IMG/VR virus record: IMGVR_UViG_3300020050_013219
Source of the DNA: a virus
Lineage: Duplodnaviria > Heunggongvirae > Uroviricota > Caudoviricetes
Length of the DNA stretch: 12,856 bases
Strand: one strand, 5' to 3'
Part shown: in pieces, positions 1 to 12,358 of the stretch
Numbering within the stretch: the first letter of the stretch is position 1
Layout: each line of letters starts with the position of its first letter
Made by a program: the position numbers and the translations under genes
Notes under the pieces: generated by a model
Database searches by the model: none
What the model saw: only the letters and a program-made list of their open reading frames with translations
Told to the model about the DNA's origin: nothing

Positions 1-3000
1 CTGTAATGTGAGAACTGTTACCTTCAATATCTTTATAGTTGTTAGCTAAAAATCTTCTATAAGTATCTTTTTGTTCTTCATTATTAGCTTTTTCAGACCA
101 TATTACTCTGTTAGGAAATAAGTTTGTATCGCACCTATATTCTTGTAAAGGTAAAAGTCTATAATTTGGAGCTTTTATATTGTAAACAGGATTAAGTTTA
201 TAAAAGTTTTTGAAAAGTTCATAATATTTCCATTCTCCATTATTTGTAAGTCTGCTTATTGAATTTCCGTTTAATTCCAACATTAATAACTCTTTACCTT
301 TATCTCCGTAATATTTTGGAAAGAATAAATTTGTTTTAACAACAGCATTGGCAGCATCATAAGATTCATTTTTCTTTGCAGAATCATCATCTTTAAAATA
401 TGTATTATTCCAAACATCATCATTATGCTCACGCCATTCCATATTTATTTCACTTTCATAATAAGTATCAATGATTTTAGATTCAAATACAGAATTTGTT
501 TCCAAATTTACATTGTTTGAAGATTGAAAAAGTAAATCTTTTGTATCACCTGTTACATTATTATCTTTTGTGAATAAATTCAAATAATCTGGGTCAGTTG
601 CTCCATCAGCATGTGGAACATATCCATAAAAACTTTGTCTAAAAGAAAATCTACAAATGAAAATGTCTCCTGACGTTACAATTGCATAATGACTTTGAAT
701 TTCTCCATCATATTGCCAAATAGTATTACTATAATCTATATATTTAATTTTCGTAAGGTCTTTGTAGCAATCTGTTTTATAGCGTTTTATGGCTACATAA
801 TTATGGCTCATCCAACCACCTGCATCAAAAATATTAGAAATACCTTCTTCTGTTTGAAAATTAAAAGCTGCTGTATAAGTTCCTGGAACAGCCCATTGAT
901 TTACATCTTTTTTTATACCCGAACCTGTTGGAAGTACTCCTGAATTAAATATTGCGGAAGTACACTCACTGTCTTTTCGTCTATAAGAAACTAAATAAGG
1001 GTTAGTATCTTGTCTTCCTTCCACTTGAAATATATTAACTTCTTGTTGAGTTTTATTGTTAAAACTTGCATTAGGAGGTGTTACAATATTTGTTTTAATT
1101 TGAGATTCTCCATTAAATGTACTATCTGCATTTATAAAAACTGAATTTTTGATTACTCTATTTGTAAGTAATTCAAATGGAATATAATTCTTTTCAAATC
1201 TATAATAGCAGTTTGTTGTTAAGATATTTGTAGTTTGTCTGTTTTTAAATCTTTTTCTATTGTTTAATACAAAGAAATGGTCATTACTTAATGTAGGGTA
1301 AGATGCTGCATTTGGTGTTAAGGAAGTATATAATTCTCTTTCCCACTTAATGTGAGTTCCGTTTAATTCACTACCTTTTAGCTTACTTAAAGGGGAATGA
1401 TAACCAATCATATTTATAGCAGTTTCTACTGGTAAATCAAGTTCTTCATTATTTTCATTTTGATAAGCAATACTATCACTACAAGCAGGTAAACATACAA
1501 ATGCTTGGTCTCCACCTGTTACTGGAATTGAAACTTGCATACTTGTTTGTAAAGTATAGCTTTTAGGATATTGATTATCGTGGGAAAATTGCATACTTTG
1601 AATGTAATGATTTCTAATATCTTTATTACTACTACTAATACTGTCCACTAAGTTTTGTTGATAAGTTTGTTGCAATATTGTACCTAAAATTCCTTTATCT
1701 ACAATTGTTTTATCATTTGCTCTATCACCTATTACTAATTTATAAGCTACAACATCATCTACATATTCTTCAGGAACAGCTATGTTATCAAATAGAAAGT
1801 GCAAAGAATTTATGTAATAATTAGTACCATCAAAGCCATAATGAGGTAATAAAGTTGTATCAGGAGTTTTACAATGTCTAATAGCATCCATTACACCTTC
1901 TACATTTGGATAAATTAAATTACCATCACAATCTCTTGTATCAGGGTATCTAATAGGTTCATCATTAAGGTCTCTACATTCATAATAAGAACCTTCTAAA
2001 GTTTGACTATTATCAAAACCTGTATTGTAAGCTTGCCATCTTTCAAATGTAGAACGTCCTACACTATTTGCAAATATATCAGCATCACTGTAATCTGCCG
2101 TAGTATAAGTACTACTATCCCAACCATCATTTTGAGCTATTCTATTATGTAAATTAGGTTCTACACTTGGAGCAGGAGTTCCATCAGCACATAAGTCTTT
2201 TTTTCTTCCCGAAATATGAAATACAGGACTTTCACTTCCATCTGCCATTATCCAAACAATTCCTGGAGCATAAACCTCATCTCTCATTAAAGATTTATTT
2301 GTATAATATTGACCACTTTTATTACCTGCTTTAAAGTTCATACTTTTAGAACTATCATAAATATCAGTGTAAAACGGAGTATTTCCATCAATAAGTTGTC
2401 TTATTGTATAGGTAACTTGAATATCATTAGCTTTAATTTGAAACTTTCCCCAATCATAGTTTTTGCTTGTTAAATTAGCTCTGATTAATCTATTATCATT
2501 TTGAATCATAGTTTTACTGTTTTCATACTTTGCTGTGGGAATTGTAGTAGTTTTATAATCAATTAAAGACAAATTGTTTATGGAAGTAATACTTAAAATT
2601 AATTCATTTTCAGTTTTAAACTTTCCGTAAGAAAAACTTTGCACTGTGTATTCATCAGTGTATTTATTTACAGCAATTTCTACATAAGGATAATTTAAGT
2701 CCAATCCCCAAATCTTGTAAATCAAAGCTTTTGTTGTTGGAACATTAACATCTTGCCCTTCAACTGTTGTAGGATTATTAAAACTACCAAGTGAAGAAAT
2801 TGGGTATGGTAAAGTCTCTGAAAACCAATCAGTTACATTTCCTATTTTATCAACATATCGGGCTTTAATTGTGTAAGCTCCACTTGGTAAATCTCCTCCT
2901 GTTTCAGCTAAGTCAATCATTCTTATTTGAGCTGTGTAATAATTTGGTTTTAATAGGAAACTTTCACAGTTTATATGATATTCAGGATGCGATAAGTTAA

Positions 3001-3361
3001 AATATCTATCAGGTTCTATACCATCATAAAAATATAGAAGTTCTTGATTCTCATTAATAATTTTATATTCACCTTTTATAGGATTTTGATAAGTAAAACA
3101 ATCTACATCAAGTTTTTCAACTCCTTTACAGCCTTTCATTTCAATAATTTTAAAAGAAGTTCCTTGCAACAACAAGAATGTTTTTTTCTTAGGAGTTTCA
3201 ATAGTTCCCATGAGATTGTAACCACTTGGAATTTCATAACAAAGTTCATTACCTGTTTCATCTTGTAACTCACCAACAGTTCCTTCATTTTTATTAACCA
3301 TATTTAACGCATAAATATAAGTATTTTCAGGACTTATTTGAGTTTGGTTATACATTTTCAT
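1..3361 (-). CDS. Muzzle / tail tubular protein (crAss001 gp44-like, P22 gp10-related), 3'-partial, >=1120 aa
   Basis: Not in the ORF track because it has no stop in the window. Hand translation from ATG 3361 (ATGA overlap with the upstream stop; alternative ATG 3355) to position 2 is open: MKMYNQTQISPENTYIYALNMVNKNEG...ETGNELCYEIPSGY...YFYDGIEPDRYFNL...GGDLPSGAY...KTMIQNDNRLIRANL...KSLMRDEVYAPGIVWIMADGSESPVFHISGR...GDIFICRFSF...YESEINMEWR...FPNRVIWSEKANNEEQKDTYRRFLANNYKDIEG. These blocks match recalled crAss-like muzzle motifs. Confidence 0.88.
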   Translation of the reverse strand, partial: MKMYNQTQISPENTYIYALNMVNKNEGTVGELQDETGNELCYEIPSGYNLMGTIETPKKKTFLLLQGTSFKIIEMKGCKGVEKLDVDCFTYQNPIKGEYKIINENQELLYFYDGIEPDRYFNLSHPEYHINCESFLLKPNYYTAQIRMIDLAETGGDLPSGAYTIKARYVDKIGNVTDWFSETLPYPISSLGSFNNPTTVEGQDVNVPTTKALIYKIWGLDLNYPYVEIAVNKYTDEYTVQSFSYGKFKTENELILSITSINNLSLIDYKTTTIPTAKYENSKTMIQNDNRLIRANLTSKNYDWGKFQIKANDIQVTYTIRQLIDGNTPFYTDIYDSSKSMNFKAGNKSGQYYTNKSLMRDEVYAPGIVWIMADGSESPVFHISGRKKDLCADGTPAPSVEPNLHNRIAQNDGWDSSTYTTADYSDADIFANSVGRSTFERWQAYNTGFDNSQTLEGSYYECRDLNDEPIRYPDTRDCDGNLIYPNVEGVMDAIRHCKTPDTTLLPHYGFDGTNYYINSLHFLFDNIAVPEEYVDDVVAYKLVIGDRANDKTIVDKGILGTILQQTYQQNLVDSISSSNKDIRNHYIQSMQFSHDNQYPKSYTLQTSMQVSIPVTGGDQAFVCLPACSDSIAYQNENNEELDLPVETAINMIGYHSPLSKLKGSELNGTHIKWERELYTSLTPNAASYPTLSNDHFFVLNNRKRFKNRQTTNILTTNCYYRFEKNYIPFELLTNRVIKNSVFINADSTFNGESQIKTNIVTPPNASFNNKTQQEVNIFQVEGRQDTNPYLVSYRRKDSECTSAIFNSGVLPTGSGIKKDVNQWAVPGTYTAAFNFQTEEGISNIFDAGGWMSHNYVAIKRYKTDCYKDLTKIKYIDYSNTIWQYDGEIQSHYAIVTSGDIFICRFSFRQSFYGYVPHADGATDPDYLNLFTKDNNVTGDTKDLLFQSSNNVNLETNSVFESKIIDTYYESEINMEWREHNDDVWNNTYFKDDDSAKKNESYDAANAVVKTNLFFPKYYGDKGKELLMLELNGNSISRLTNNGEWKYYELFKNFYKLNPVYNIKAPNYRLLPLQEYRCDTNLFPNRVIWSEKANNEEQKDTYRRFLANNYKDIEGNSSHIT

Positions 3362-4155
3362 CGTTTTATAGTTCTAAGCATTTTATACATTTTATCATTC
3401 ATAATATTAGAAACTTTATTTATGTCAAGACTTTTCACCATGTCAAAGTTTTGGGCAGCACGTTTAAATCCAATCCATTTTTGATTAAATTCTTGATGCA
3501 AATCTTTATTTTGTTGAGTGTAATCCATTTGTCTTTTAACATCATAAAAATTCATCATTACATAATTAGCCAAAGCATCTATTAAAGGTTGATTCTTATC
3601 ATCAATCATAAATTCCTCCAGTTTGGGAAAAGTAAGATAATTAATACAAGCTAAACCTTTTTCTATTTGTGGAAAGTAAAGACAACCGTCAAGTTTCATA
3701 TCATAAACATATTCACAATCATTACAATAAGTAGGACAATCTTTACATTGTTTTTCAAAAATTACTTTTCTTGGTTTAGCCCAACTCCAAGTTATGTCTA
3801 TTACTTTACTATTGTTATTTGGAAACCAAACTGGTAAAAGCGGATAAATTGCATAAATTTGGTCATTAACAGTTTGTTGAACAATTGGGTAATCTGTGGC
3901 AATTATATTTCCATCTACAACTTCATAATCTTTTATAGCAGCTTCATCTGTTCTAACTGAAACAGCTTGGATAGCTTCATAATCTTCACACATACAAGCC
4001 TCATAATCCTCTATTTTAACGAGTTTAGTGTTCTGTTGCTTCAATCCTATCTGTAAAGATTTGAGTGCATTGTAGAGCCATATATCCACATCTACATCAT
4101 TCCATTCATTCTTTGGTAAGTTTATGTAGCTATAAACATAGCTGATTGGTTTCAT
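3358..4155 (-). CDS. Tail ring protein (crAss001 gp43-like / tail stabilisation protein), 265 aa
   Basis: Lies between the IHF-like and muzzle genes with ATGA overlaps at both ends. The blocks KIEDYEACMCEDYEAIQAV and GLACINYLTFP...QPLIDALANYV resemble this ring family. Confidence 0.7.
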   Translation of the reverse strand: MKPISYVYSYINLPKNEWNDVDVDIWLYNALKSLQIGLKQQNTKLVKIEDYEACMCEDYEAIQAVSVRTDEAAIKDYEVVDGNIIATDYPIVQQTVNDQIYAIYPLLPVWFPNNNSKVIDITWSWAKPRKVIFEKQCKDCPTYCNDCEYVYDMKLDGCLYFPQIEKGLACINYLTFPKLEEFMIDDKNQPLIDALANYVMMNFYDVKRQMDYTQQNKDLHQEFNQKWIGFKRAAQNFDMVKSLDINKVSNIMNDKMYKMLRTIKR

Positions 4156-4661
4156 AATCTCATATAGTTATTTATTAAATATTTATCCTTATCTAAGGCT
4201 TCTTTAATTCTTTTCAAACATTTGTCTGACCAATAGAATCTTAAAAATCCTCCCATTGTAGTAATGTTCTTTCTTTTCCACCTAATAGTAGTTTTGTAGC
4301 CATCTGTCCAAGAATAATCTTCCCACCATCTAAGATGTTTTGGTTTCCATCTTACCATGTAAAGAGTTCCCCAACCATAAGGTAATATTAAATTTTTTCC
4401 TTGAATTAATTGCTCTAAACCTGCTTCAAAACAAGCTGAAAGTATTTCTTTATATTGAGCCAAAGTTAAAGAATATTTATGTCCTGAAACTATTTCACTT
4501 TTCGGAACATTATTTCTACCTTGTACTTTTGTAGTATCAACATCTTTATGAGTATAATGTCTAAACATATCTACAAATGTATAATTTGGCTTATTAATAT
4601 GTCCCATTTGTTTACTCTTTATTTCTTTCATTGCTATTTTCGTCTTCTTTAGTTTTAACAT
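4152..4661 (-). CDS. IHF/HU-like DNA-binding protein of the crAss-like tail module, 169 aa (alternative starts at 4631 or 4607)
   Basis: YKEILSACFEAGLEQLIQGKNLILPYGWGTLYMVRWK resembles the HU/IHF helix plus beta-strand core; the protein is basic; it sits in the conserved position between two ring genes. Start is uncertain: ATG 4661 has a one-mismatch upstream motif (AATTA) but overlaps the upstream gene by 50 nt. Confidence 0.7.
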   Translation of the reverse strand: MLKLKKTKIAMKEIKSKQMGHINKPNYTFVDMFRHYTHKDVDTTKVQGRNNVPKSEIVSGHKYSLTLAQYKEILSACFEAGLEQLIQGKNLILPYGWGTLYMVRWKPKHLRWWEDYSWTDGYKTTIRWKRKNITTMGGFLRFYWSDKCLKRIKEALDKDKYLINNYMRL

Positions 4662-5256
4662 AATAATTTAATTCTTTATCAAGCATCATGTAAACTACGG
4701 GAATATATTGTTCATCTAATGGAAAATCTTCTTCTAATGGACTGTAACAAGGTTGATTATTACTACCAATTATATCTTCAAGTTTAGTAACATCTTCCCA
4801 AGCAGCTTGTATTGCAATACATTCAAGTTCAAGATTTTTAAAGATGTAAAGATAATTATCAATTATATCATAATAATTTTGAATAGCAGGATGTTTAGAT
4901 AATCTCTTTCCATGTATAAAATTTAATTGACTAATTAATTTTTGTCCATTATAAACATACATTTCAAACCTATCAGAATTTACCAAAGTTGGTGGAATTG
5001 GACTTACTGTTTTCATTACTTTGCAACCCATAAAAGTCGGCTGACATTCGTTTTTAAAAATTACTTCTTCTAAATCTAAAGAAATTGTTTTATAATTTTT
5101 AAAGCCAAGTTTGTGTTTCTTATCAAGTATTTCTTGTTTTATTTTATTTGCTGTTGTATTCATCAACAAATAAAGCTCTCTATTGTTTAGTGAGCAAGTT
5201 TGTTGTCTTTCTCTCAACATGGTTCTATATGTTGAAATTATTTCTCCTATTGTCAT
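4612..5256 (-). CDS. Tail ring protein (crAss001 gp40-like), 214 aa
   Basis: N-terminus MTIGEIISTYRTML...NRELYLLMN, YKTISLDLEEV...C...CKVMKT..PIP and C-terminal C..PLEEDFPLDEQYIPVV..ML.KEL..KED..SN match the recalled ring-protein pattern. Confidence 0.75.
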   Translation of the reverse strand: MTIGEIISTYRTMLRERQQTCSLNNRELYLLMNTTANKIKQEILDKKHKLGFKNYKTISLDLEEVIFKNECQPTFMGCKVMKTVSPIPPTLVNSDRFEMYVYNGQKLISQLNFIHGKRLSKHPAIQNYYDIIDNYLYIFKNLELECIAIQAAWEDVTKLEDIIGSNNQPCYSPLEEDFPLDEQYIPVVYMMLDKELNYYVKTKEDENSNERNKE

Positions 5257-5286
5257 TTGTATTTAGTTTATTTTTTGTAAGAACAC

Positions 5287-5314
5287 AAAAAAAAGGAAGT
5301 CTTTCAACTTCCTT
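5287..5314 (-). terminator. Intrinsic (Rho-independent) terminator
   Basis: Minus strand reads AAGGAAGT-TGAAAG-ACTTCCTT-TTTTTT: a perfect 8-bp stem, 6-nt loop and U-tract, starting 8 nt after the stop of the 120-aa gene. Confidence 0.85.
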
Positions 5315-5322
5315 AACGATTT

Positions 5323-5685
5323 TTAAATTGTATCATTCAAAACATACATTTTGTTAGGAACGGCTTTTTCAAGTTTAACCTTTTCATATCTAATTGTTTT
5401 TTCGTAAAGAAGTTCTTGCAACCTTCTTACATCTTCTGCACATTTAGCAGCTTCATCAGTTGCTCTTCTATTTTCAAATAAACAAGCTTCATTTCTGCGT
5501 CGCAAAGTATCTATTTTAGCTTCCATTAAAATCATTCTATCTTCTAATTTTTCATCTCTTTTTATCTTATCGTAAACAAGATAACCAGAAGTAAGAAATA
5601 AAAGAACTACTAATAGACCTTGTTCAATAATGAGACTCCCTACCTTTTTTAACAATGATTCAACTATCTTAGTGTTTATTAACAT
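5323..5685 (-). CDS. Single-transmembrane plus coiled-coil protein, putative holin (BhlA/UviB-like) or i-spanin-like, 120 aa
   Basis: One hydrophobic helix (GLLVVLLFLTSGYLVY) followed by a charged heptad region. EQG...GYLVYDKIKRDEKLEDR resembles the BhlA/UviB pattern. Function is inferred. Confidence 0.5.
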   Translation of the reverse strand: MLINTKIVESLLKKVGSLIIEQGLLVVLLFLTSGYLVYDKIKRDEKLEDRMILMEAKIDTLRRRNEACLFENRRATDEAAKCAEDVRRLQELLYEKTIRYEKVKLEKAVPNKMYVLNDTI

Positions 5686-5780
5686 TCTATTAAACTTAGT
5701 TCTTCATTAATTAACAGAAAATATATGTAGTGTATGTCAGGACAATTTCCTGATAAAAGTTTTTGGATTTCTTCGCACAT
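5679..5780 (-). CDS. Small Cys-containing hypothetical protein, 33 aa (MCEEIQKLLSGNCPDIHYIYFLLINEELSLIEC)
   Basis: ATG 5780 to TAA 5679. It fills the only sizeable gap, has AACTA 7 nt upstream and an A-rich leader, and overlaps the next start by 7 nt. Below the ORF-track length cut-off. Confidence 0.6.
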   Translation of the reverse strand: MCEEIQKLLSGNCPDIHYIYFLLINEELSLIEC

Positions 5781-5796
5781 TTTTTAATAGTTTTGC

Positions 5797-6615
5797 CTAA
5801 CAAGTCTGGCAAGAATTTAATTCAGCATATATTTTTCTATATAAAGCATTTTTAGTACAACAATCCGTACAATTTTGTAAAGATAAATACCAAGTAAAAA
5901 TATCTAAATTATTTGTTTCACAATCTTTGCAATCAAAATTCAAAGTGTTGTATATTTTACAATCTAATGGTTCACACTCAACTATAAAACATTCATATTG
6001 CCCATTAACTGATGCTGTATAAAAACCATCTTCTAATGCTATATCAATAATACTGTAACGTTCTGTATTAACATAGGAATTTAAACAATCATAATTAAAT
6101 TCATTAGTAGTTCCAACTGATTCTAAATCACAACTTTGACCATTTGAGAAAATTCTACTTACAATATTAAAAGTAATTCCATTGGTACAAGTAAAAGTTA
6201 ATTCATATTTTATTAGAAAATAATAGTATGTTTGAAAAGAATGAGTATTTGTAAAGTAAGATAAATTATTGATATTTGTAGTACTTACAACAGAACCATC
6301 TTCTTCAATAGTAACTGTCCCACTTACAGCAGTAACTTGACTTAAATCTAAGTTAAAACCGTAGCTAAATTCTGCAAATTGAGGACAAGTATTACACCCA
6401 GTTCCAGGAGGGTCATCACAATTTAGGTCATAACCTAATGTATAATTATTATAATAACATTGTGCTTCTAAAAAATTAGAATAAATATTTTCTTGACAAT
6501 AAACTTCTGTTGTAATATTTTCACTACAACCTTTTTTAACCCCAAAACTTATTAAACCTTTAATTGGCGGATTTATAAGAATGTTATTTTCTTCACAATT
6601 ATAATTAACAGTCAT
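5797..6615 (-). CDS. Cys-rich structural protein, paralogue B (candidate tail hub / fibre-docking protein), 272 aa
   Basis: 20 Cys including CNTC, CKDC, CTDCC and terminal CQTC; aligns end to end with 6605..7450; occupies the slot where crAss001 has its two tail-hub genes (function inferred from position). Confidence 0.55.
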   Translation of the reverse strand: MTVNYNCEENNILINPPIKGLISFGVKKGCSENITTEVYCQENIYSNFLEAQCYYNNYTLGYDLNCDDPPGTGCNTCPQFAEFSYGFNLDLSQVTAVSGTVTIEEDGSVVSTTNINNLSYFTNTHSFQTYYYFLIKYELTFTCTNGITFNIVSRIFSNGQSCDLESVGTTNEFNYDCLNSYVNTERYSIIDIALEDGFYTASVNGQYECFIVECEPLDCKIYNTLNFDCKDCETNNLDIFTWYLSLQNCTDCCTKNALYRKIYAELNSCQTC

Positions 6616-6915
6616 AGCAACCCTTAGTGATGTTAATTATTTTTTCATAAGCATTGCATCTTGCACAACAATCTAAACAATTTGAATTTAATGCTCTATA
6701 ATACATTAATATTTTCATGTAAGTTTCTAAATCTTTTTTCTTATTGCAATTGTAGCAATTTTTATTAAATTTTTCTTCAATAAAATTCTTTACTTTGCAA
6801 GCCAAAGATTCATCACATTCTACAATAAAACAACCATTAATATCTTGAAAAGTTGCAGAATAAAACCCATCTACTAAATCTAATGGAAAATGTACACCAT
6901 CTTCTTCAATAGTAA
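6295..6915. repeat. Exact 20-bp direct repeat ACCATCTTCTTCAATAGTAA at 6295-6314 and 6896-6915
   Basis: Read directly from the sequence; encodes TIEEDG in both Cys-rich paralogues. Confidence 0.9.
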
Positions 6916-7450
6916 TGCTTCTTAAACAATCATACTGATAATATAGATTAGTATTAAAATCTCCTATTGTAAAACATGGTGGATAAAAATTATAAACATT
7001 GGTATTATAACCTATTTGATAATTAATTGCAATATCAGATAATTGAAAGTGTAATATAAATTTATAGCTTTTGTATAAATTATTTGCTGTGGTAAGAATT
7101 GTTCGAGTTGTGTTAAAATAACTTAAATCTATATCTTCCGTTGTTTGTAATACCCCATTATCGTATGTTTTTTTAACACCAGTAAAACTTACAACATTAG
7201 AAACATCTAAATTAATAAATTCATCCCATGTTGTTTCTGAAAAACAAGCATCTTGAGGTTCTTCTTTTATTCCAGTAATATTATCTAAAGTAAAAAAAAT
7301 ATTTAATAAATTTTTTTTATTTTTAGGATTACAATAAATGTATTTTTCAGGTATTCCACAGCAAGTTTTGGTGACATATAATTCAACAATACTTTCTGGT
7401 TCTGTCATTACAGGAACAACTATTTCTTTTGTTTCACAATTATATGTCAT
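6605..7450 (-). CDS. Cys-rich structural protein, paralogue A (candidate tail hub / fibre-docking protein), 281 aa
   Basis: 18 Cys including CYNC, CLDCCARC and terminal CYDC; shares YNCE, K.C, YC, YDCL, L.DGFY.A, CFIVEC and L.CK with 5797..6615. Confidence 0.55.
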   Translation of the reverse strand: MTYNCETKEIVVPVMTEPESIVELYVTKTCCGIPEKYIYCNPKNKKNLLNIFFTLDNITGIKEEPQDACFSETTWDEFINLDVSNVVSFTGVKKTYDNGVLQTTEDIDLSYFNTTRTILTTANNLYKSYKFILHFQLSDIAINYQIGYNTNVYNFYPPCFTIGDFNTNLYYQYDCLRSITIEEDGVHFPLDLVDGFYSATFQDINGCFIVECDESLACKVKNFIEEKFNKNCYNCNKKKDLETYMKILMYYRALNSNCLDCCARCNAYEKIINITKGCYDC

Positions 7451-7456
7451 GGTAAG

Positions 7457-7918
7457 TTAGTTTATAATCAATCTTGCATCTGCAACAGAAGCTGTTAAAA
7501 TTGTAACAGTAATATTGCCAGAAGATGCTACAAAAGACCAAGTATAAGTTAAAGTATTTTCATAACTTGTTCCATTTTTCTTTAAAAGTGTTACAACAGG
7601 ATTGTAGCCTTTTAAGTGAGTTGTTCTTGGTAATGTGTAGGTAGAATTTGTTCCACCATTTACCCAACTTGCGGAAGGAATATCTACAATATATTTAGAC
7701 AATCCAGCAGGTGTAACAACTTTTGTATCAGTAGAACCCAATGAAGTTTCATCTCTTGTAGCAAAAGCAGAAATTCCACTTACAGTTGTTGTAGCAGTTG
7801 GTAAAACTGTTGAATCTGTTGAAAAAATACTTGTTAATATATCTGAAAAGCTTGTCCAATTATTTATTCCTGGGAATAATTTATTTGCAATTATTGAACG
7901 GTCAATAAAATATTTCAT
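7457..7918 (-). CDS. Short fibre-like virion protein (candidate head fibre), 153 aa
   Basis: Contains ATTTVSGISAFATRDETSLGSTDTKVVTPAGL, the common phage fibre repeat (A.TT..G...AT..E...G....VTP..L), followed by a small beta-rich domain (YTLPRTTHLKGYNPVV...GNITVT...RLII). Confidence 0.6.
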   Translation of the reverse strand: MKYFIDRSIIANKLFPGINNWTSFSDILTSIFSTDSTVLPTATTTVSGISAFATRDETSLGSTDTKVVTPAGLSKYIVDIPSASWVNGGTNSTYTLPRTTHLKGYNPVVTLLKKNGTSYENTLTYTWSFVASSGNITVTILTASVADARLIIN

Positions 7919-7929
7919 TGTTTATTTAG

Positions 7930-9021
7930 TTAAGTTGTGTATTCTATAAGTACCCCATTAACAAATTTTAATGTTGCCCCAAGCATGGATATAGTAGTAG
8001 TTACTCCTGTATTATAAGATTGTATTTTGCCATCTTCATTTGTACACAGTAAATTTACAGGAGGGTCTGCTGGAAAATCATTTCGAGTATTTGGGTAGGC
8101 TGATATTAAAGTGTTAGTTGAGGTGAAAGATAATGTATTTCCATAAGTACCATCTGCTGTCGATAATGTAATTTGGTCAATAGCAACTTCAAGGAAAGTC
8201 TCTCCAACAGATACGCCATCTTCATATTTTGATACTAAATATGAAAAGTCGGTAGGTTTTATTCTCATAATAGAACGGTTAAGAGTTTTTTCATTAGTTT
8301 TATCTACTAAATTATATAAAAATTTATCACCTTCTTCCACTGATAATAATCTATCTGCCATTCCTTTATAAATTACTCCATCTATATCAGTAGATAAAGT
8401 TGTAATAAGATGTTTTTCATTAGTAATTTTTCCTCCTGAAAAACTAACAACTCCCTCTTCTATGTTCATCCAATCTCCTGCTGTAAATTCAACAGGTGGT
8501 TCTGGTGGAATAATAGGTTCTCCTGTTGTAAAAGTAGTAGTAATTTCAGAAAGAACTGCTTTATTTGTTCCACTTGTAATATTAAAGCATATTGACAAAT
8601 ATTCAGGATTTTCAAAATCCCCTGTAACACTAAAATCACCTGTTTCTCCAGAAGGCACTGTGATACTTCCAATTATATCTTCTCCTGAAAGTAACCAAAC
8701 AATAATATCTTCATCCGCACTATTAGAAGTTACTGTAAAAGCCATTGTTCCAAATTTACAAGGTGGAATATCTTTTGCAACATCTTCTAAAGTAGCAGTA
8801 GTTGAAAATACTCCTAAATCAAGTGCTGTAAAATATTGACCGTTTAATTCAGAAATATCTAAAGTTCCAATTTCTTGCGTACTAAATGAAATATCTTCAC
8901 TTGGTGTTGGAAAAACTTGTGGGTCAATTATATCTTGTATTACTTGATTTAAGTTTACATAAGGAATTAGACTTAATTCAGATTCTCCATTTTGCAAAGC
9001 TCTTTTATCTATGTAAGTCAT
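7930..9021 (-). CDS. Modular beta-rich fibre/decoration protein, 363 aa
   Basis: Acidic and Thr/Ser-rich, with a Pro linker (GEPIIPPEPP), a shaft-like repeat (FTAGDWMNIEEGVVS) and a C-terminal TISMLGATLKFVNGVL motif typical of phage fibre ends. Its N-terminus resembles that of the 153-aa protein. Confidence 0.5.
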   Translation of the reverse strand: MTYIDKRALQNGESELSLIPYVNLNQVIQDIIDPQVFPTPSEDISFSTQEIGTLDISELNGQYFTALDLGVFSTTATLEDVAKDIPPCKFGTMAFTVTSNSADEDIIVWLLSGEDIIGSITVPSGETGDFSVTGDFENPEYLSICFNITSGTNKAVLSEITTTFTTGEPIIPPEPPVEFTAGDWMNIEEGVVSFSGGKITNEKHLITTLSTDIDGVIYKGMADRLLSVEEGDKFLYNLVDKTNEKTLNRSIMRIKPTDFSYLVSKYEDGVSVGETFLEVAIDQITLSTADGTYGNTLSFTSTNTLISAYPNTRNDFPADPPVNLLCTNEDGKIQSYNTGVTTTISMLGATLKFVNGVLIEYTT

Positions 9022-9033
9022 TGATTTATAGTT

Positions 9034-9068
9034 AAAAAAAGGAGGAAGTAATTATTACAACCTCCTTT
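9034..9068 (-). terminator. Intrinsic terminator after the auxiliary capsid gene
   Basis: Minus strand reads AAAGGAGG-TT-GTAA-TAA-TTAC-TT-CCTCCTTT-TTTT: a GC-containing stem with an internal U-U loop and a 7-U tract, 6 nt after the stop at 9075. Confidence 0.8.
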
Positions 9069-9074
9069 AATTTT

Positions 9075-10550
9075 TTAGTTAAAAGTGTAGCTTGAATACC
9101 CCAACTTTTGAACCACAGTATCAAGAATAGGTTTAACATAACTTGTCAAATCACCTTGACTTGTAGAACCTGTAACACCTGGAGTTGCAGCAGTAGCCAC
9201 AGGAGCAGCACTTTCAACAAGCAATATTGTTCTTACAGTAATAACTTCCCCCACAGAATAAGTATGTCCATTGAACTCTGTTTCATGTAATTCAGATTCA
9301 AAGATATAACTTGTGTACCATTTATCTGCATCAATAGGAACATATTTTTGAATTAAATCAAAATTACTGCCCCAAACTTGACGAGAATAAACATCAAAAG
9401 CAGCATCTTCTTTATATCTTACCAACCAATTAGCAGATTTTCCATTACTAATAGCTCTACGTGAAGCAATAGCTAATGTAGCAGAAGGAGAATTAAGTTC
9501 ATTTGTTTTATCAGCATTTAAAAGAACAGTTGTTAATATTGTGTCCATTTGCTCATCTTGAACCAAAGCAGTAGATTGTTTCATACCTGTTACTAACAAA
9601 CCTTTAAGAGCATTTGCAGAAGTAGAAGCACCTGCTTGTGTTACATCAATCACACCAATTTTATCATTGTTTGCCAACTGACCATTGGCAACAGATTCAA
9701 TAAGCATTTGTCTAAAACCTTCATCAGTTGTAAATCTAATAGGATAACCTGTACCAGTTGTAGGATTAACAATTACTGCTACTGTAAAAGTAGTTGTAGC
9801 ACCTGAAATAAGAGCTGATACTAAAGGAAGTGTATAAGTTGTACCTGCAATAGTAGGATTTGTTTGAGCATTAGCACAAACTCCAAATACAATGTAAGGA
9901 GAATATCCACCTGTTCCTGTCAAAGGATTACGGAAAATTGCAGAACTTTGAGACATTTTATATCCAAGATTTTTATAAATATAATCAGTTGGAGAAACTG
10001 TTGCCAAAGCTGTAAAATCTGGAGTTGCTATCCTAAAAGACATATTATCAATGTTTTGCGCTCCATTAACTTTGGAAAGTGCAATACCATCAACTTTCAA
10101 ATGAATTTTATAATTACTATTTGATACAGCAGTTAAACCACTCAATCTTGCAGAACTATATCTTTCCCAATTTGATAATTGACCTGTTCCCATGGTTCTT
10201 ACTGGTTTAGATACATCTATAATACCAGAACGAAGAACTCTTGTGTTATATTGGTCATTTGCACCAATGGCATTTTGTAAAGTTGCAGCAGTTGTAGAAT
10301 AAGGTGTTCCTTGAACAAACTGAATTTTCTTTGTTTTTAATTCAGAAATATCTGTTACTACATCTACTAATTCATCAATAGTTGTAATATCTTCTTTATC
10401 TTGATATACAAGACCTATTTGACCATCTGCTAAAATATAAGCTGAAGCACCTTTATCCCAAATGTTTTGCCCTGCATCAGAGACATTAATCATGTTTTGG
10501 TCATTTTTAAATACAAGAATCCTTTCTTGCACTTGTTTTCTATTTGCCAT
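9075..10550 (-). CDS. Auxiliary capsid protein (crAss001 gp36-like), 491 aa
   Basis: QVQERILVF, RSGIIDV, VSNSNYKIHLKV, DYIYKNL, ID..KWYTSY and the C-terminal ILLVE resemble recalled auxiliary-capsid blocks; Ala/Thr-rich; conserved position after the first ring gene; followed by a terminator. Confidence 0.7.
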   Translation of the reverse strand: MANRKQVQERILVFKNDQNMINVSDAGQNIWDKGASAYILADGQIGLVYQDKEDITTIDELVDVVTDISELKTKKIQFVQGTPYSTTAATLQNAIGANDQYNTRVLRSGIIDVSKPVRTMGTGQLSNWERYSSARLSGLTAVSNSNYKIHLKVDGIALSKVNGAQNIDNMSFRIATPDFTALATVSPTDYIYKNLGYKMSQSSAIFRNPLTGTGGYSPYIVFGVCANAQTNPTIAGTTYTLPLVSALISGATTTFTVAVIVNPTTGTGYPIRFTTDEGFRQMLIESVANGQLANNDKIGVIDVTQAGASTSANALKGLLVTGMKQSTALVQDEQMDTILTTVLLNADKTNELNSPSATLAIASRRAISNGKSANWLVRYKEDAAFDVYSRQVWGSNFDLIQKYVPIDADKWYTSYIFESELHETEFNGHTYSVGEVITVRTILLVESAAPVATAATPGVTGSTSQGDLTSYVKPILDTVVQKLGYSSYTFN

Positions 10551-10567
10551 TTTTAAAAATTAGTTTA

Positions 10568-11251
10568 CTAATTCAACATTGAATCAGTGAGTGCTTTAGT
10601 TTCAATAGTGGGCTGAATACTTTCTAAAGCAAGTAAAGCAGCTTTTTTAATAATCTCTATTACCGTATTATCGTCAGTCCAAGTCCATTCAGTTGTAGTA
10701 GTCATATTTTCATTTCTATCATAATAACCGCCAAGTGAAACCACTCTTGGATATTTATAATAAGAAACATAAGCTGTTGGAATTGTGAAACCATTAGGTT
10801 CAAGAATTATAGTTTTTTGGTTATCATAAGAAGCAATATAAGCATTGCAAATTCCCCAAGTCCAATTAGATTCTTGTGTTTCATTAACAATTATTTGATG
10901 CTTAAAAAATTTACATTCTTTAAATCTTTTTGTACAATTGTTTTTTGTACCATCTATTTCAAAAGCTATAAATTCATAAACAGGATAAGATAAATCATCT
11001 CCTATAATTTTATTACCTATTGGAGAATAAGATTCTTTATGTACGAGAATTGGGGCAAGTTGATTCATTATTACATTATCATACTCTACCCCATTTCCTT
11101 GTTTATTATTAAGTTTCTCTGCGAGAAAACTTAGCTGTGCTTGATTCAATATAATGTCAATCTCATACGATGTAAATGCTTTCCCAAAGCTTGAATTAAG
11201 CTTGTTTACTTCAATATTAAACCTTAAATGAGATTCTACAATTGTAATCAT
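10568..11251 (-). CDS. Head-proximal ring / head-tail connector protein (crAss001 gp34/gp35-like, P22 gp4-related), 227 aa
   Basis: N-terminal HLRFNIEVNKLNS...FTSYEIDIILNQAQLSFL and C-terminal YVSYYKYPRVV...EIIKKAALLALE match the recalled ring-protein signature. Confidence 0.8.
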   Translation of the reverse strand: MITIVESHLRFNIEVNKLNSSFGKAFTSYEIDIILNQAQLSFLAEKLNNKQGNGVEYDNVIMNQLAPILVHKESYSPIGNKIIGDDLSYPVYEFIAFEIDGTKNNCTKRFKECKFFKHQIIVNETQESNWTWGICNAYIASYDNQKTIILEPNGFTIPTAYVSYYKYPRVVSLGGYYDRNENMTTTTEWTWTDDNTVIEIIKKAALLALESIQPTIETKALTDSMLN

Positions 11252-12333
11252 GCGTTAATTAGTTTTGCTTTTAGTTGCCCATCAAGTACTTCTAAAATAG
11301 CTTTATCAGTAAGTTTGTAAAGAATATCCATGCTACCAATTTCATATCTGTTTCCATCTACATAGTAACCATAGTCAGGTGAAGCTGTGTTTTTAATCAA
11401 AACTCTTTCCTTAATACATTCATTAATGAAAAATTCATGTTCAAAAGCTTTTGCTTTGGTTTTATCATTCATACGGTCATAAACTTCTACAAATAATCTC
11501 CATCTTTCCAATTGTTCGGTTTCTGAAGTTTTTTCTTCTGTGAAACTAACTAACCAATTTTTTAATTTTGTTTCAGTAAGTTTTCTATCAGGTTTAGCTA
11601 CTTTTGTATATTTTGCAGAAATCATAGATGATAATTTATAGCATTGTTCTTGATTATAATCTTCTGTAACTTTGTAAAGATAAGAAGAAACTTTGAGTTT
11701 AGGTTTAACTTTAACAAATCCTTCTGCATTTTCTTTCTTTTCGTCATAGATGAAATATTTGCAATTAGGTTTCTTTGCAATTTCATTTCTACTTGGTGCA
11801 AAATCACTTTGCACAAACTCTTTTGAACTTCTAAGAATTGCTCTAATCCAAATATAATCATTCATTGGAGAAGTGCCATTTTCATCATCAAATGTATTTG
11901 TATCTGCAAAATGTTTCCATAATGTTTCTAAATAAGTTTTCTTTACATCTCTTCCATTTGGTTTATCGCCCCAACTTGATTTTTCAGTTAAATAACCTTT
12001 TGGTACATCAAACCTAATTTCAGCTATAGTTTGTTCGGGAAGAACTTTTTGCTTCAATATCCAATCCTTTGCAGAAATCCAGTTATCCCCAATTTTAGCA
12101 TTTTCATCATTGAAATAAGGGTTTTCTTGTGGTTCTTTTGACCAAACTACAAATTCATTTGTTTTATGGGATTTAGGAATGGTAAGTCTATCAAATACAC
12201 TTGTACCTTTAAGTTTGGTTGAGAGTACCTTATCAGCACTCTCATAACCATTATACCATTCTACTTTATCTGAACTTTTGGTAGTTACACCAAGTGGATG
12301 TGTTCCTTCCACTCTTTTTATATATAATTTCAT
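11248..12333 (-). CDS. Conserved crAss-like protein encoded immediately after the MCP (crAssphage gene 75 / crAss001 gp33-like), 361 aa, function unknown
   Basis: Position after the MCP, plus motifs LWKHF...SPMNDYIWIRAIL and APSRNEI...KYFIYDE and a helical, charged C-terminal half. Confidence 0.65.
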   Translation of the reverse strand: MKLYIKRVEGTHPLGVTTKSSDKVEWYNGYESADKVLSTKLKGTSVFDRLTIPKSHKTNEFVVWSKEPQENPYFNDENAKIGDNWISAKDWILKQKVLPEQTIAEIRFDVPKGYLTEKSSWGDKPNGRDVKKTYLETLWKHFADTNTFDDENGTSPMNDYIWIRAILRSSKEFVQSDFAPSRNEIAKKPNCKYFIYDEKKENAEGFVKVKPKLKVSSYLYKVTEDYNQEQCYKLSSMISAKYTKVAKPDRKLTETKLKNWLVSFTEEKTSETEQLERWRLFVEVYDRMNDKTKAKAFEHEFFINECIKERVLIKNTASPDYGYYVDGNRYEIGSMDILYKLTDKAILEVLDGQLKAKLINA

Positions 12334-12358
12334 ATTTTAGATAGTTAATTTATTTGTT

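Follow-up and report, generated by a model that had tools for sequence, protein, structure and literature searches.

Start signals and late promoters in described systems

The pentamer AACTA precedes most start codons in a 12,856-nucleotide stretch of DNA from a crAss-like phage (IMG/VR record IMGVR_UViG_3300020050_013219), the whole of which we call the window. Short words placed before many genes are known from phage transcription: the late promoter of phage T4, TATAAATA, is short and stands before many late genes. Phage AR9 uses a late promoter AACA-N6-T-A/G and phiKZ a TATG word; such promoters precede roughly half of the AR9 genes that are expressed late or continuously, and untranslated leaders span 26-491 nucleotides (nt) (PMC5312081). 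The middle and late promoters of phi14:2 and crAss-like phages are tripartite and -35/-10-like, are mostly intergenic and serve the host RNA polymerase (Drobysheva et al., bioRxiv 10.1101/2020.03.07.982082). With regard to translation, an A-rich profile and a depletion of upstream AUG triplets are features of Bacteroidota, whose A-rich element lies at -14 to -11 and is accompanied by Kozak-like adenines A-3 and A-6 (PMC6847099). In Flavobacterium johnsoniae, it is the adenines from -14 to -11, chiefly A-12 and A-13, that stimulate translation (Baez et al. 2019, PMC6847099).

AACTA resembles the Shine-Dalgarno (SD) site in being a short word located 7-10 nt before almost every cistron, including those whose start is embedded in the preceding gene, and in accompanying GTG and TTG starts as well. 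Unlike the SD site, it is not purine-rich and has no complement in the 3' tail of 16S rRNA (CCUCC core), as judged from 89 Bacteroidota ends, from which that of the true host may differ; moreover, it is limited to one class of phage genes and absent from the sampled genomes of the host phylum. It shares with the A-rich element of Bacteroidota its position, an A-rich and G-poor spacer and the depletion of upstream AUG triplets. However, the A-run is here interrupted by an invariant C-T core, which is found neither in phi14:2 nor in Bacteroidota genomes or their ribosomal-protein operons.

The likeness to the late promoters of AR9, phiKZ and T4 is that of a low-information, strand-specific word that stands before numerous late genes and is missing from early ones. 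The distance of those promoters from the start codon varies, whereas AACTA is locked to it, occurs at 75-90% of cistrons and accompanies TTG and GTG starts. The phi14:2 promoters belong to a phage of the same virus order and gene order, and both signals precede middle or late genes; however, AACTA has no second box (no position between -45 and -5, counted from the motif, is conserved), and late starts of phi14:2 have no AACTA.

A positional signal before the starts of the window

A sequence-only reading of the window had listed 13 starts with their upstream motifs and spacers, and every coordinate was found to be correct on re-check. An exact AACTA, followed by A or T, ends 7-11 nt before the ATG at 11 of these 13 starts. 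Away from starts, the coding strand contains 19 copies (0.0015 per nt), which corresponds to a chance of 0.76% per gene in a five-position window and to a probability of 4e-22 for at least 11 hits in 13. Over the whole window we counted 46 copies of the pentamer against 57 expected. AACTA is thus not over-represented window-wide, and the signal is therefore positional. The absence of any SD-like site at the window starts, also claimed in that reading, was borne out.

One start has to be revised. An AATTA with a spacer of 7 nt does lie upstream of the start placed at 4661 (minus strand), but this start is not conserved, its ATG being replaced by ACG in a 99%-identical relative. The start conserved in all relatives is the ATG at 4631, and an exact AACTA (4650..4654, minus strand) is found upstream of it with a spacer of 18 nt, which makes it an outlier in spacing.

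Conservation and shape of the motif in related phages

We identified relatives of this phage by exact-protein look-ups and by searches with the major capsid protein (MCP); their records are fragments, 7-40% complete according to CheckV. They include the same phage on longer contigs (L001 and L011), an 87%-identical variant (L003), an 82-kb viral contig with an MCP 80% identical (G001) and further phages with MCP identities of 59, 55, 49, 42 and 34-35%. Unbiased k-mer discovery was performed on the 20 nt preceding open reading frame (ORF) starts. ACTA- or AACTA-type words ranked top or near the top in each relative with enough starts, a five-gene fragment (L021) being too small to judge, and were the outright top word except in L020 (at the 5-mer level). 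Motif-bearing starts amount to 10 of 15 in L011, 13 of 14 in L014 and 12 of 13 in L015, and the word is also top or near-top in L019, L013, L020 and L022. The motif is thus kept from 99% down to 34% MCP identity.

In G001, AACTA is the top 5-mer in positions -20 to -1 of late starts, where it occurs at 23 of 37 starts against 0.9 expected (p ~1e-28), and the ACTA core is present at 28 of the 37. Only 1.09% of non-start ATGs in this contig are preceded by AACTA. For phi14:2, a crAss-like phage available in culture whose gene order is identical, the same k-mer method returned only TAAAA-type words, and its late starts are devoid of AACTA. We conclude that the motif belongs to the clade and not to the order. 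Our literature searches found no description of it.

Alignment of the sites yields a short element, (A/T)N-A-ACTA-A, with no second upstream box and no other conserved position between -45 and +30 besides the start codon. Among 89 distinct starts in the subclade of the window, ACTA ends 6-11 nt before the start in 67 occurrences, and spacers of 7, 8, 9 and 10 nt form a plateau. The motif is present at all 15 starts that follow a gap of 6-15 nt and at 16 of 17 with a gap of 16-60 nt. Where it has to lie wholly within the upstream coding sequence, it is still found at 27 of 38 starts, mostly encoding Lys-Thr-Lys/Asn. Embedded copies had been proposed to be built with CTA leucine codons; CTA is indeed rare (13 of 309 Leu codons) and is used before the starts at 11251 and 5685, but ACT-Thr accounts for 17 of the 27 embedded copies and CTA-Leu for 7. 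Most apparent misses are explained by a motif located just beyond the counting window or by a mis-called start.

A few motif-less genes in the relatives have SD-like words instead: AAGGAG in G001 (at 36004, that is L004:18174, and at 67252, that is L009:7724) and GAGGTG in L013 (L013:2930). One of these genes encodes a GIY-YIG homing endonuclease, which may have a foreign origin and a foreign start signal.

Restriction to one class of genes

The motif is unevenly distributed among phage genes. With temporal class inferred from gene content and strand, it precedes 23 of 37 genes in the long plus-strand block of G001 versus 4 of 29 in the two minus-strand blocks (Fisher p = 1e-4). The plus-strand block holds the chaperonin, terminase, portal, MCP, ring, muzzle and giant virion protein genes, while the minus-strand blocks contain mostly small genes; a class II ribonucleotide reductase is one of the four non-late genes that bear the motif. 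In a 112-kb distant relative (L187), ACTA within 6-20 nt of the start was found at none of 10 early-type minus-strand genes.

Absence from sampled Bacteroidota genomes

The sequence-only reading had considered that AACTA might be an initiation signal of the host lineage. In 301 evenly sampled Bacteroidota genomes, the arrangement AACTA-N(6-10)-ATG never exceeds its reversed control, with a ratio of typically about 0.5 and at most 0.97; G001 has 39 forward occurrences versus 14 in the control. The four genomes with the highest ratios show only A/T-rich start contexts. In the ribosomal-protein operons of 30 Bacteroidota genomes, AACTA occurs at 3-4 of 224 starts, which is chance level. This part of the earlier claim was thus not sustained: early-type phage genes, phi14:2, the 301 genomes and the ribosomal-operon starts all lack the motif. 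Together, the Bacteroidota negatives and the motif-free early genes make a generic ribosome-binding word of the host unlikely.

The 3' tail of 16S rRNA (...GGAACACCUCCUUUCU-3') contains no complement to AACUA in 89 Bacteroidota, which excludes pairing with the usual tail of this phylum; the only conserved UUAGUU in these 16S sequences is some 416 nt away from the 3' end. Leads on the host itself were poor: a search with the GroEL-like gene yielded no more than a 24% hit in a Puniceicoccales metagenome-assembled genome, and the C5-methylase has no match.

A candidate translation-initiation element

Judging from sequence comparison, the explanation towards which we lean is that (A)ACTA(A) would be a sequence-specific, cis-acting translation-initiation element, standing in for the SD site at the late and virion cistrons of this crAss-like clade. 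The original proposal of a sequence-specific, non-SD initiation signal is thereby retained, without its host-lineage version: the motif is the top k-mer clade-wide, is placed cistron by cistron, occupies the position of the A-rich element and accompanies TTG and GTG starts.

In G001, the tail ring protein 2 (ring-2) gene (L004:18681-19325), orthologous to the window gene starting at 5256, begins with TTG, and the gene for a 225-aa protein (L004:12811-13488), orthologous to the window gene starting at 11251, begins with GTG; each has an AACTA with a spacer of 8 nt. Both proteins align without gaps, residue 1 to residue 1, with their ATG-initiated orthologues in the window. The motif therefore tracks the translation start whatever the codon, which is unexpected for messages with a 5'-terminal AUG. 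We note that the public gene call for ring-2 in L003 (4681-5289) uses an ATG further downstream and thereby loses 12 residues. One apparent promoter before ring-2 in G001 was discarded, as it is in fact the AACTA with the TTG start.

The sequence surrounding the motif is also of the kind expected of Bacteroidota messages. Positions -6 to -1 of the spacer are 57% A and poor in G and C, like the start contexts of phi14:2, and ATG triplets upstream of starts are depleted five-fold (7 versus 33.8 expected). Counted from the start, the AA of the motif lies at roughly -12 to -15 and coincides in part with the stimulatory adenine region of F. johnsoniae (-14 to -11).

We infer that the element acts in RNA, and from this a mechanism may be sketched. 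In the mRNA, with a spacer of 7-10 nt to the start codon, it would take the place of the unspecific A-rich sequence that is usual in Bacteroidota messages (-11 to -14) and would help the small ribosomal subunit to choose the start codon and to load there on long polycistronic late transcripts; starts buried in the preceding gene would be served likewise. Since the 16S tail has no complement and the motif is missing from early-type genes and from sampled Bacteroidota genomes, the reader of the element would be specific to infection: the phage might encode a factor that binds RNA or associates with the ribosome, or an unsampled host lineage might have some feature that serves this purpose. Going one step further, and only tentatively, we may hypothesize a private initiation code for late genes, in which AACUA before late start codons is recognized, in a host indifferent to SD sites, by such a factor of the phage or by a ribosome that the phage has remodelled. 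A trans-acting RNA was also considered as a reader and rejected: non-coding gaps contain no cluster of anti-motif copies, and Rfam models detected only tRNAs and one DUF805b motif.

Several observations weigh against an initiation element. In distant subclades (L013, and L020/L022/G307) the motif is still enriched but is spaced 11-20 nt from the start, which is hard to fit with a single fixed ribosome geometry. Restriction to one class of genes is a classic property of promoters and not of ribosome-binding sites. There is the lack of a complement in the 16S tail described above, and internal AACTA-N-ATG combinations are not depleted. Finally, we found no bS21, S1-domain or sigma-like gene; Sigma70_r2 and Sigma70_r4_2 had no match in four records, and about 48 ORFs scanned against Pfam revealed no sigma or other evident RNA-binding domain, a weak negative given that the records are 7-40% complete.

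Alternative explanations

The most serious rival is a compact late promoter, consisting of a single element or lying close to the transcription start and recognized by a polymerase of the phage or by host RNA polymerase equipped with a late factor from the phage, so that nearly every late gene would have its own transcript with a short leader. We consider this somewhat doubtful, yet it would account for the class and module specificity observed in G001 and L187. The drift in spacing between subclades (7-10 versus 11-20 nt) would also be natural, as leader lengths can vary in this way, and the motif often comes directly after terminator-like hairpins. The late promoters of AR9 and phiKZ (PMC5312081), together with that of T4, are precedents for short, low-information signals. 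However, presence at 75-90% of cistrons, including 27 of 38 embedded starts, is above any mapped promoter set, and published crAss-like middle and late promoters are of the tripartite -35/-10 type. The four equally used spacings define no single register, position -1 is A in 60% of sites, and TTG and GTG starts with a spacer of 8 nt rule out leaderless (5'-terminal AUG) messages for the genes concerned. The sequence-only reading had ranked a promoter for leaderless messages as less likely, and the TTG and GTG starts disfavour it; its short-leader counterpart is a serious rival. The failure to find a sigma-like gene, in incomplete genomes, is a further point against the promoter.

Internal copies of the word bear on this question as well. 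The 57 kb of late coding sequence contains 64 sense and 52 antisense copies of AACTA, avoided no more than control words, which again argues against a promoter. Internal sense copies being this common, the word alone must be insufficient, and a nearby start codon is needed. Shuffling of synonymous codons gave a depletion of 0.68-0.85 on both strands, and control 5-mers deviate equally, so that this analysis does not discriminate. The Bacteroidota -7 box TAHHTTTG, also searched for, is as frequent as chance predicts for DNA so rich in A and T and is uninformative.

An RNA-processing signal, with a host or phage endoribonuclease that would cleave polycistronic late transcripts at ACUA or beside it to produce short, unstructured, A-rich leaders, seems improbable to us. 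Sequence-specific RNases with sites of 3-7 nt do exist, for example in the MazF family, and the motif forms the 5' edge of the A-rich leader in both spacing classes; it is also found directly after tRNA clusters, before the next ORF. However, with about one unavoided internal sense copy per kb in late genes, such an enzyme would fragment coding regions; no nuclease candidate was identified, and activating cleavage before every cistron is without precedent.

Least probable of all is an ordinary host signal, in which the host itself would initiate at AACUA, perhaps by means of bS1 or of a modified 3' end of its 16S rRNA, and the phage would simply match it. A stable host lineage would agree with a motif kept down to 34% MCP identity, and our screen covered 301 species genomes of a single phylum, but the motif-free early-type genes of two phage genomes, the TAAAA words of phi14:2, the chance-level ribosomal-protein operons, the unmatched 16S tail and the lack of excess in every Bacteroidota genome all speak against it.

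Genes and sites of the window

The window has a GC content of about 29%, and all its genes lie on the minus strand. They form the structural module of a divergent crAss-like phage, which encodes, besides the C-terminal end of the major capsid protein, tail ring protein 2 (PF25702), a muzzle protein (PF25731) and several proteins without an assigned function. The annotated phage collection contains no nucleotide match to the window and no match to its 491-aa protein; this phage thus has no close annotated counterpart.

Following the direction of transcription, the first motif, AACTA at 12342..12346, lies 8 nt before the ATG at 12333, which opens the gene that directly follows the major capsid gene and encodes a 361-aa protein. 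The 227-aa protein starting at 11251 is preceded by two copies within 11260..11276 (11260-11264 with a spacer of 8 nt and 11272-11276 with a spacer of 20 nt), both read as CTA-Leu in the upstream gene. The 491-aa protein has its AACTA at 10561..10565, 10 nt before the ATG at 10550. For the 363-aa protein starting at 9021, the motif (9029..9033, spacer 7 nt) comes directly after a hairpin and a run of seven T residues. A tail-fibre collar-like protein of 153 aa follows, with AACTA at 7927..7931 and a spacer of 8 nt to the ATG at 7918, then a 281-aa protein with AACTA at 7458..7462, 7 nt before the ATG at 7450. The 272-aa protein starting at 6615 has the variant CACTA (6625..6629, spacer 9 nt).

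Between two structural genes lies an ORF of 32 codons (5682-5780), which contains a cysteine (MCEEIQ...) and has its own AACTA at 5788..5792, 7 nt before its ATG at 5780. Its conservation in four relatives (L011, L003, G001 and L014) indicates a real small gene. The motif of the next gene, which encodes a 120-aa protein starting at 5685, is read as GAA-CTA within this mini-ORF (5697..5701, spacer 11 nt). The ring-2 gene starts at 5256 and has AACTA at 5264..5268 (spacer 7 nt), preceded by a terminator-like hairpin at 5293-5314. The last two sites precede a 265-aa protein starting at 4155 (AACTA at 4165..4169, spacer 9 nt, within the upstream gene) and the muzzle protein gene (2..3361), whose AACTA at 3369..3373, followed by A or T, is 7 nt from the ATG at 3361. 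In both places where a hairpin and T-run form a terminator-like site (9034-9075 and 5293-5314, minus strand), this site adjoins the motif of the next gene, and about 15-40 nt separate the T-run from the start codon.

Further features of the relatives

The relatives show several other features worth recording. A GroEL-like chaperonin gene heads the late block (L007:14300-16009; L187:8352-10004), as it does in phi14:2 (g105), and tRNA clusters lie just downstream of it (Gln-His-Phe in G001; Asn-Thr-Gln-Tyr and Met-His in L013). Intein-type insertions occur in the terminase-position gene and in the class II ribonucleotide reductase (L004:2971-6393; L013:2930-6235; L018:3309-6689). Only Hint and LAGLIDADG intein domains were detected in the former, located upstream of the portal-position gene, and its identity as a terminase is inferred from synteny with phi14:2. 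The ribonucleotide reductase appears to be split, with a further fragment at L018:2006-2485. The early-type block of G001 contains an above-threshold match to the Rfam DUF805b RNA motif (RF02914; L007:3416-3454, minus strand). A single ORF of 5321 codons (G001 48342-64307, in L008/L009) is probably the region of a virion-packaged RNA polymerase. As CheckV gives the 82-kb G001 contig a completeness of only 40%, the genome may be unusually large for a crAss-like phage.

Implications for crAss-like phages

The motif has immediate uses in annotation. One TTG start and one GTG start, both lost through truncation in public gene calls, are recovered with its help, and it draws attention to small genes, for example the 32-codon ORF at 5780; it also provides a simple sequence signature by which this clade can be recognized in metagenomes.

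As to its biology, the motif looks like an undescribed, phage-specific substitute for the ribosome-binding site, phage-specific because no sampled Bacteroidota genome shows such a placement before starts. If it did turn out to be a compact promoter, one promoter per cistron, a few bases from the start, would be an unusual architecture in an abundant virus order. A sequence-specific element confined to late genes would offer a tractable handle on how start codons are chosen without SD pairing in Bacteroidota and their phages. If the element does act in translation, it would possibly represent a new layer of temporal control; and if it is read as a private code, the switch from early to late expression would be enforced at translation as well as at transcription.

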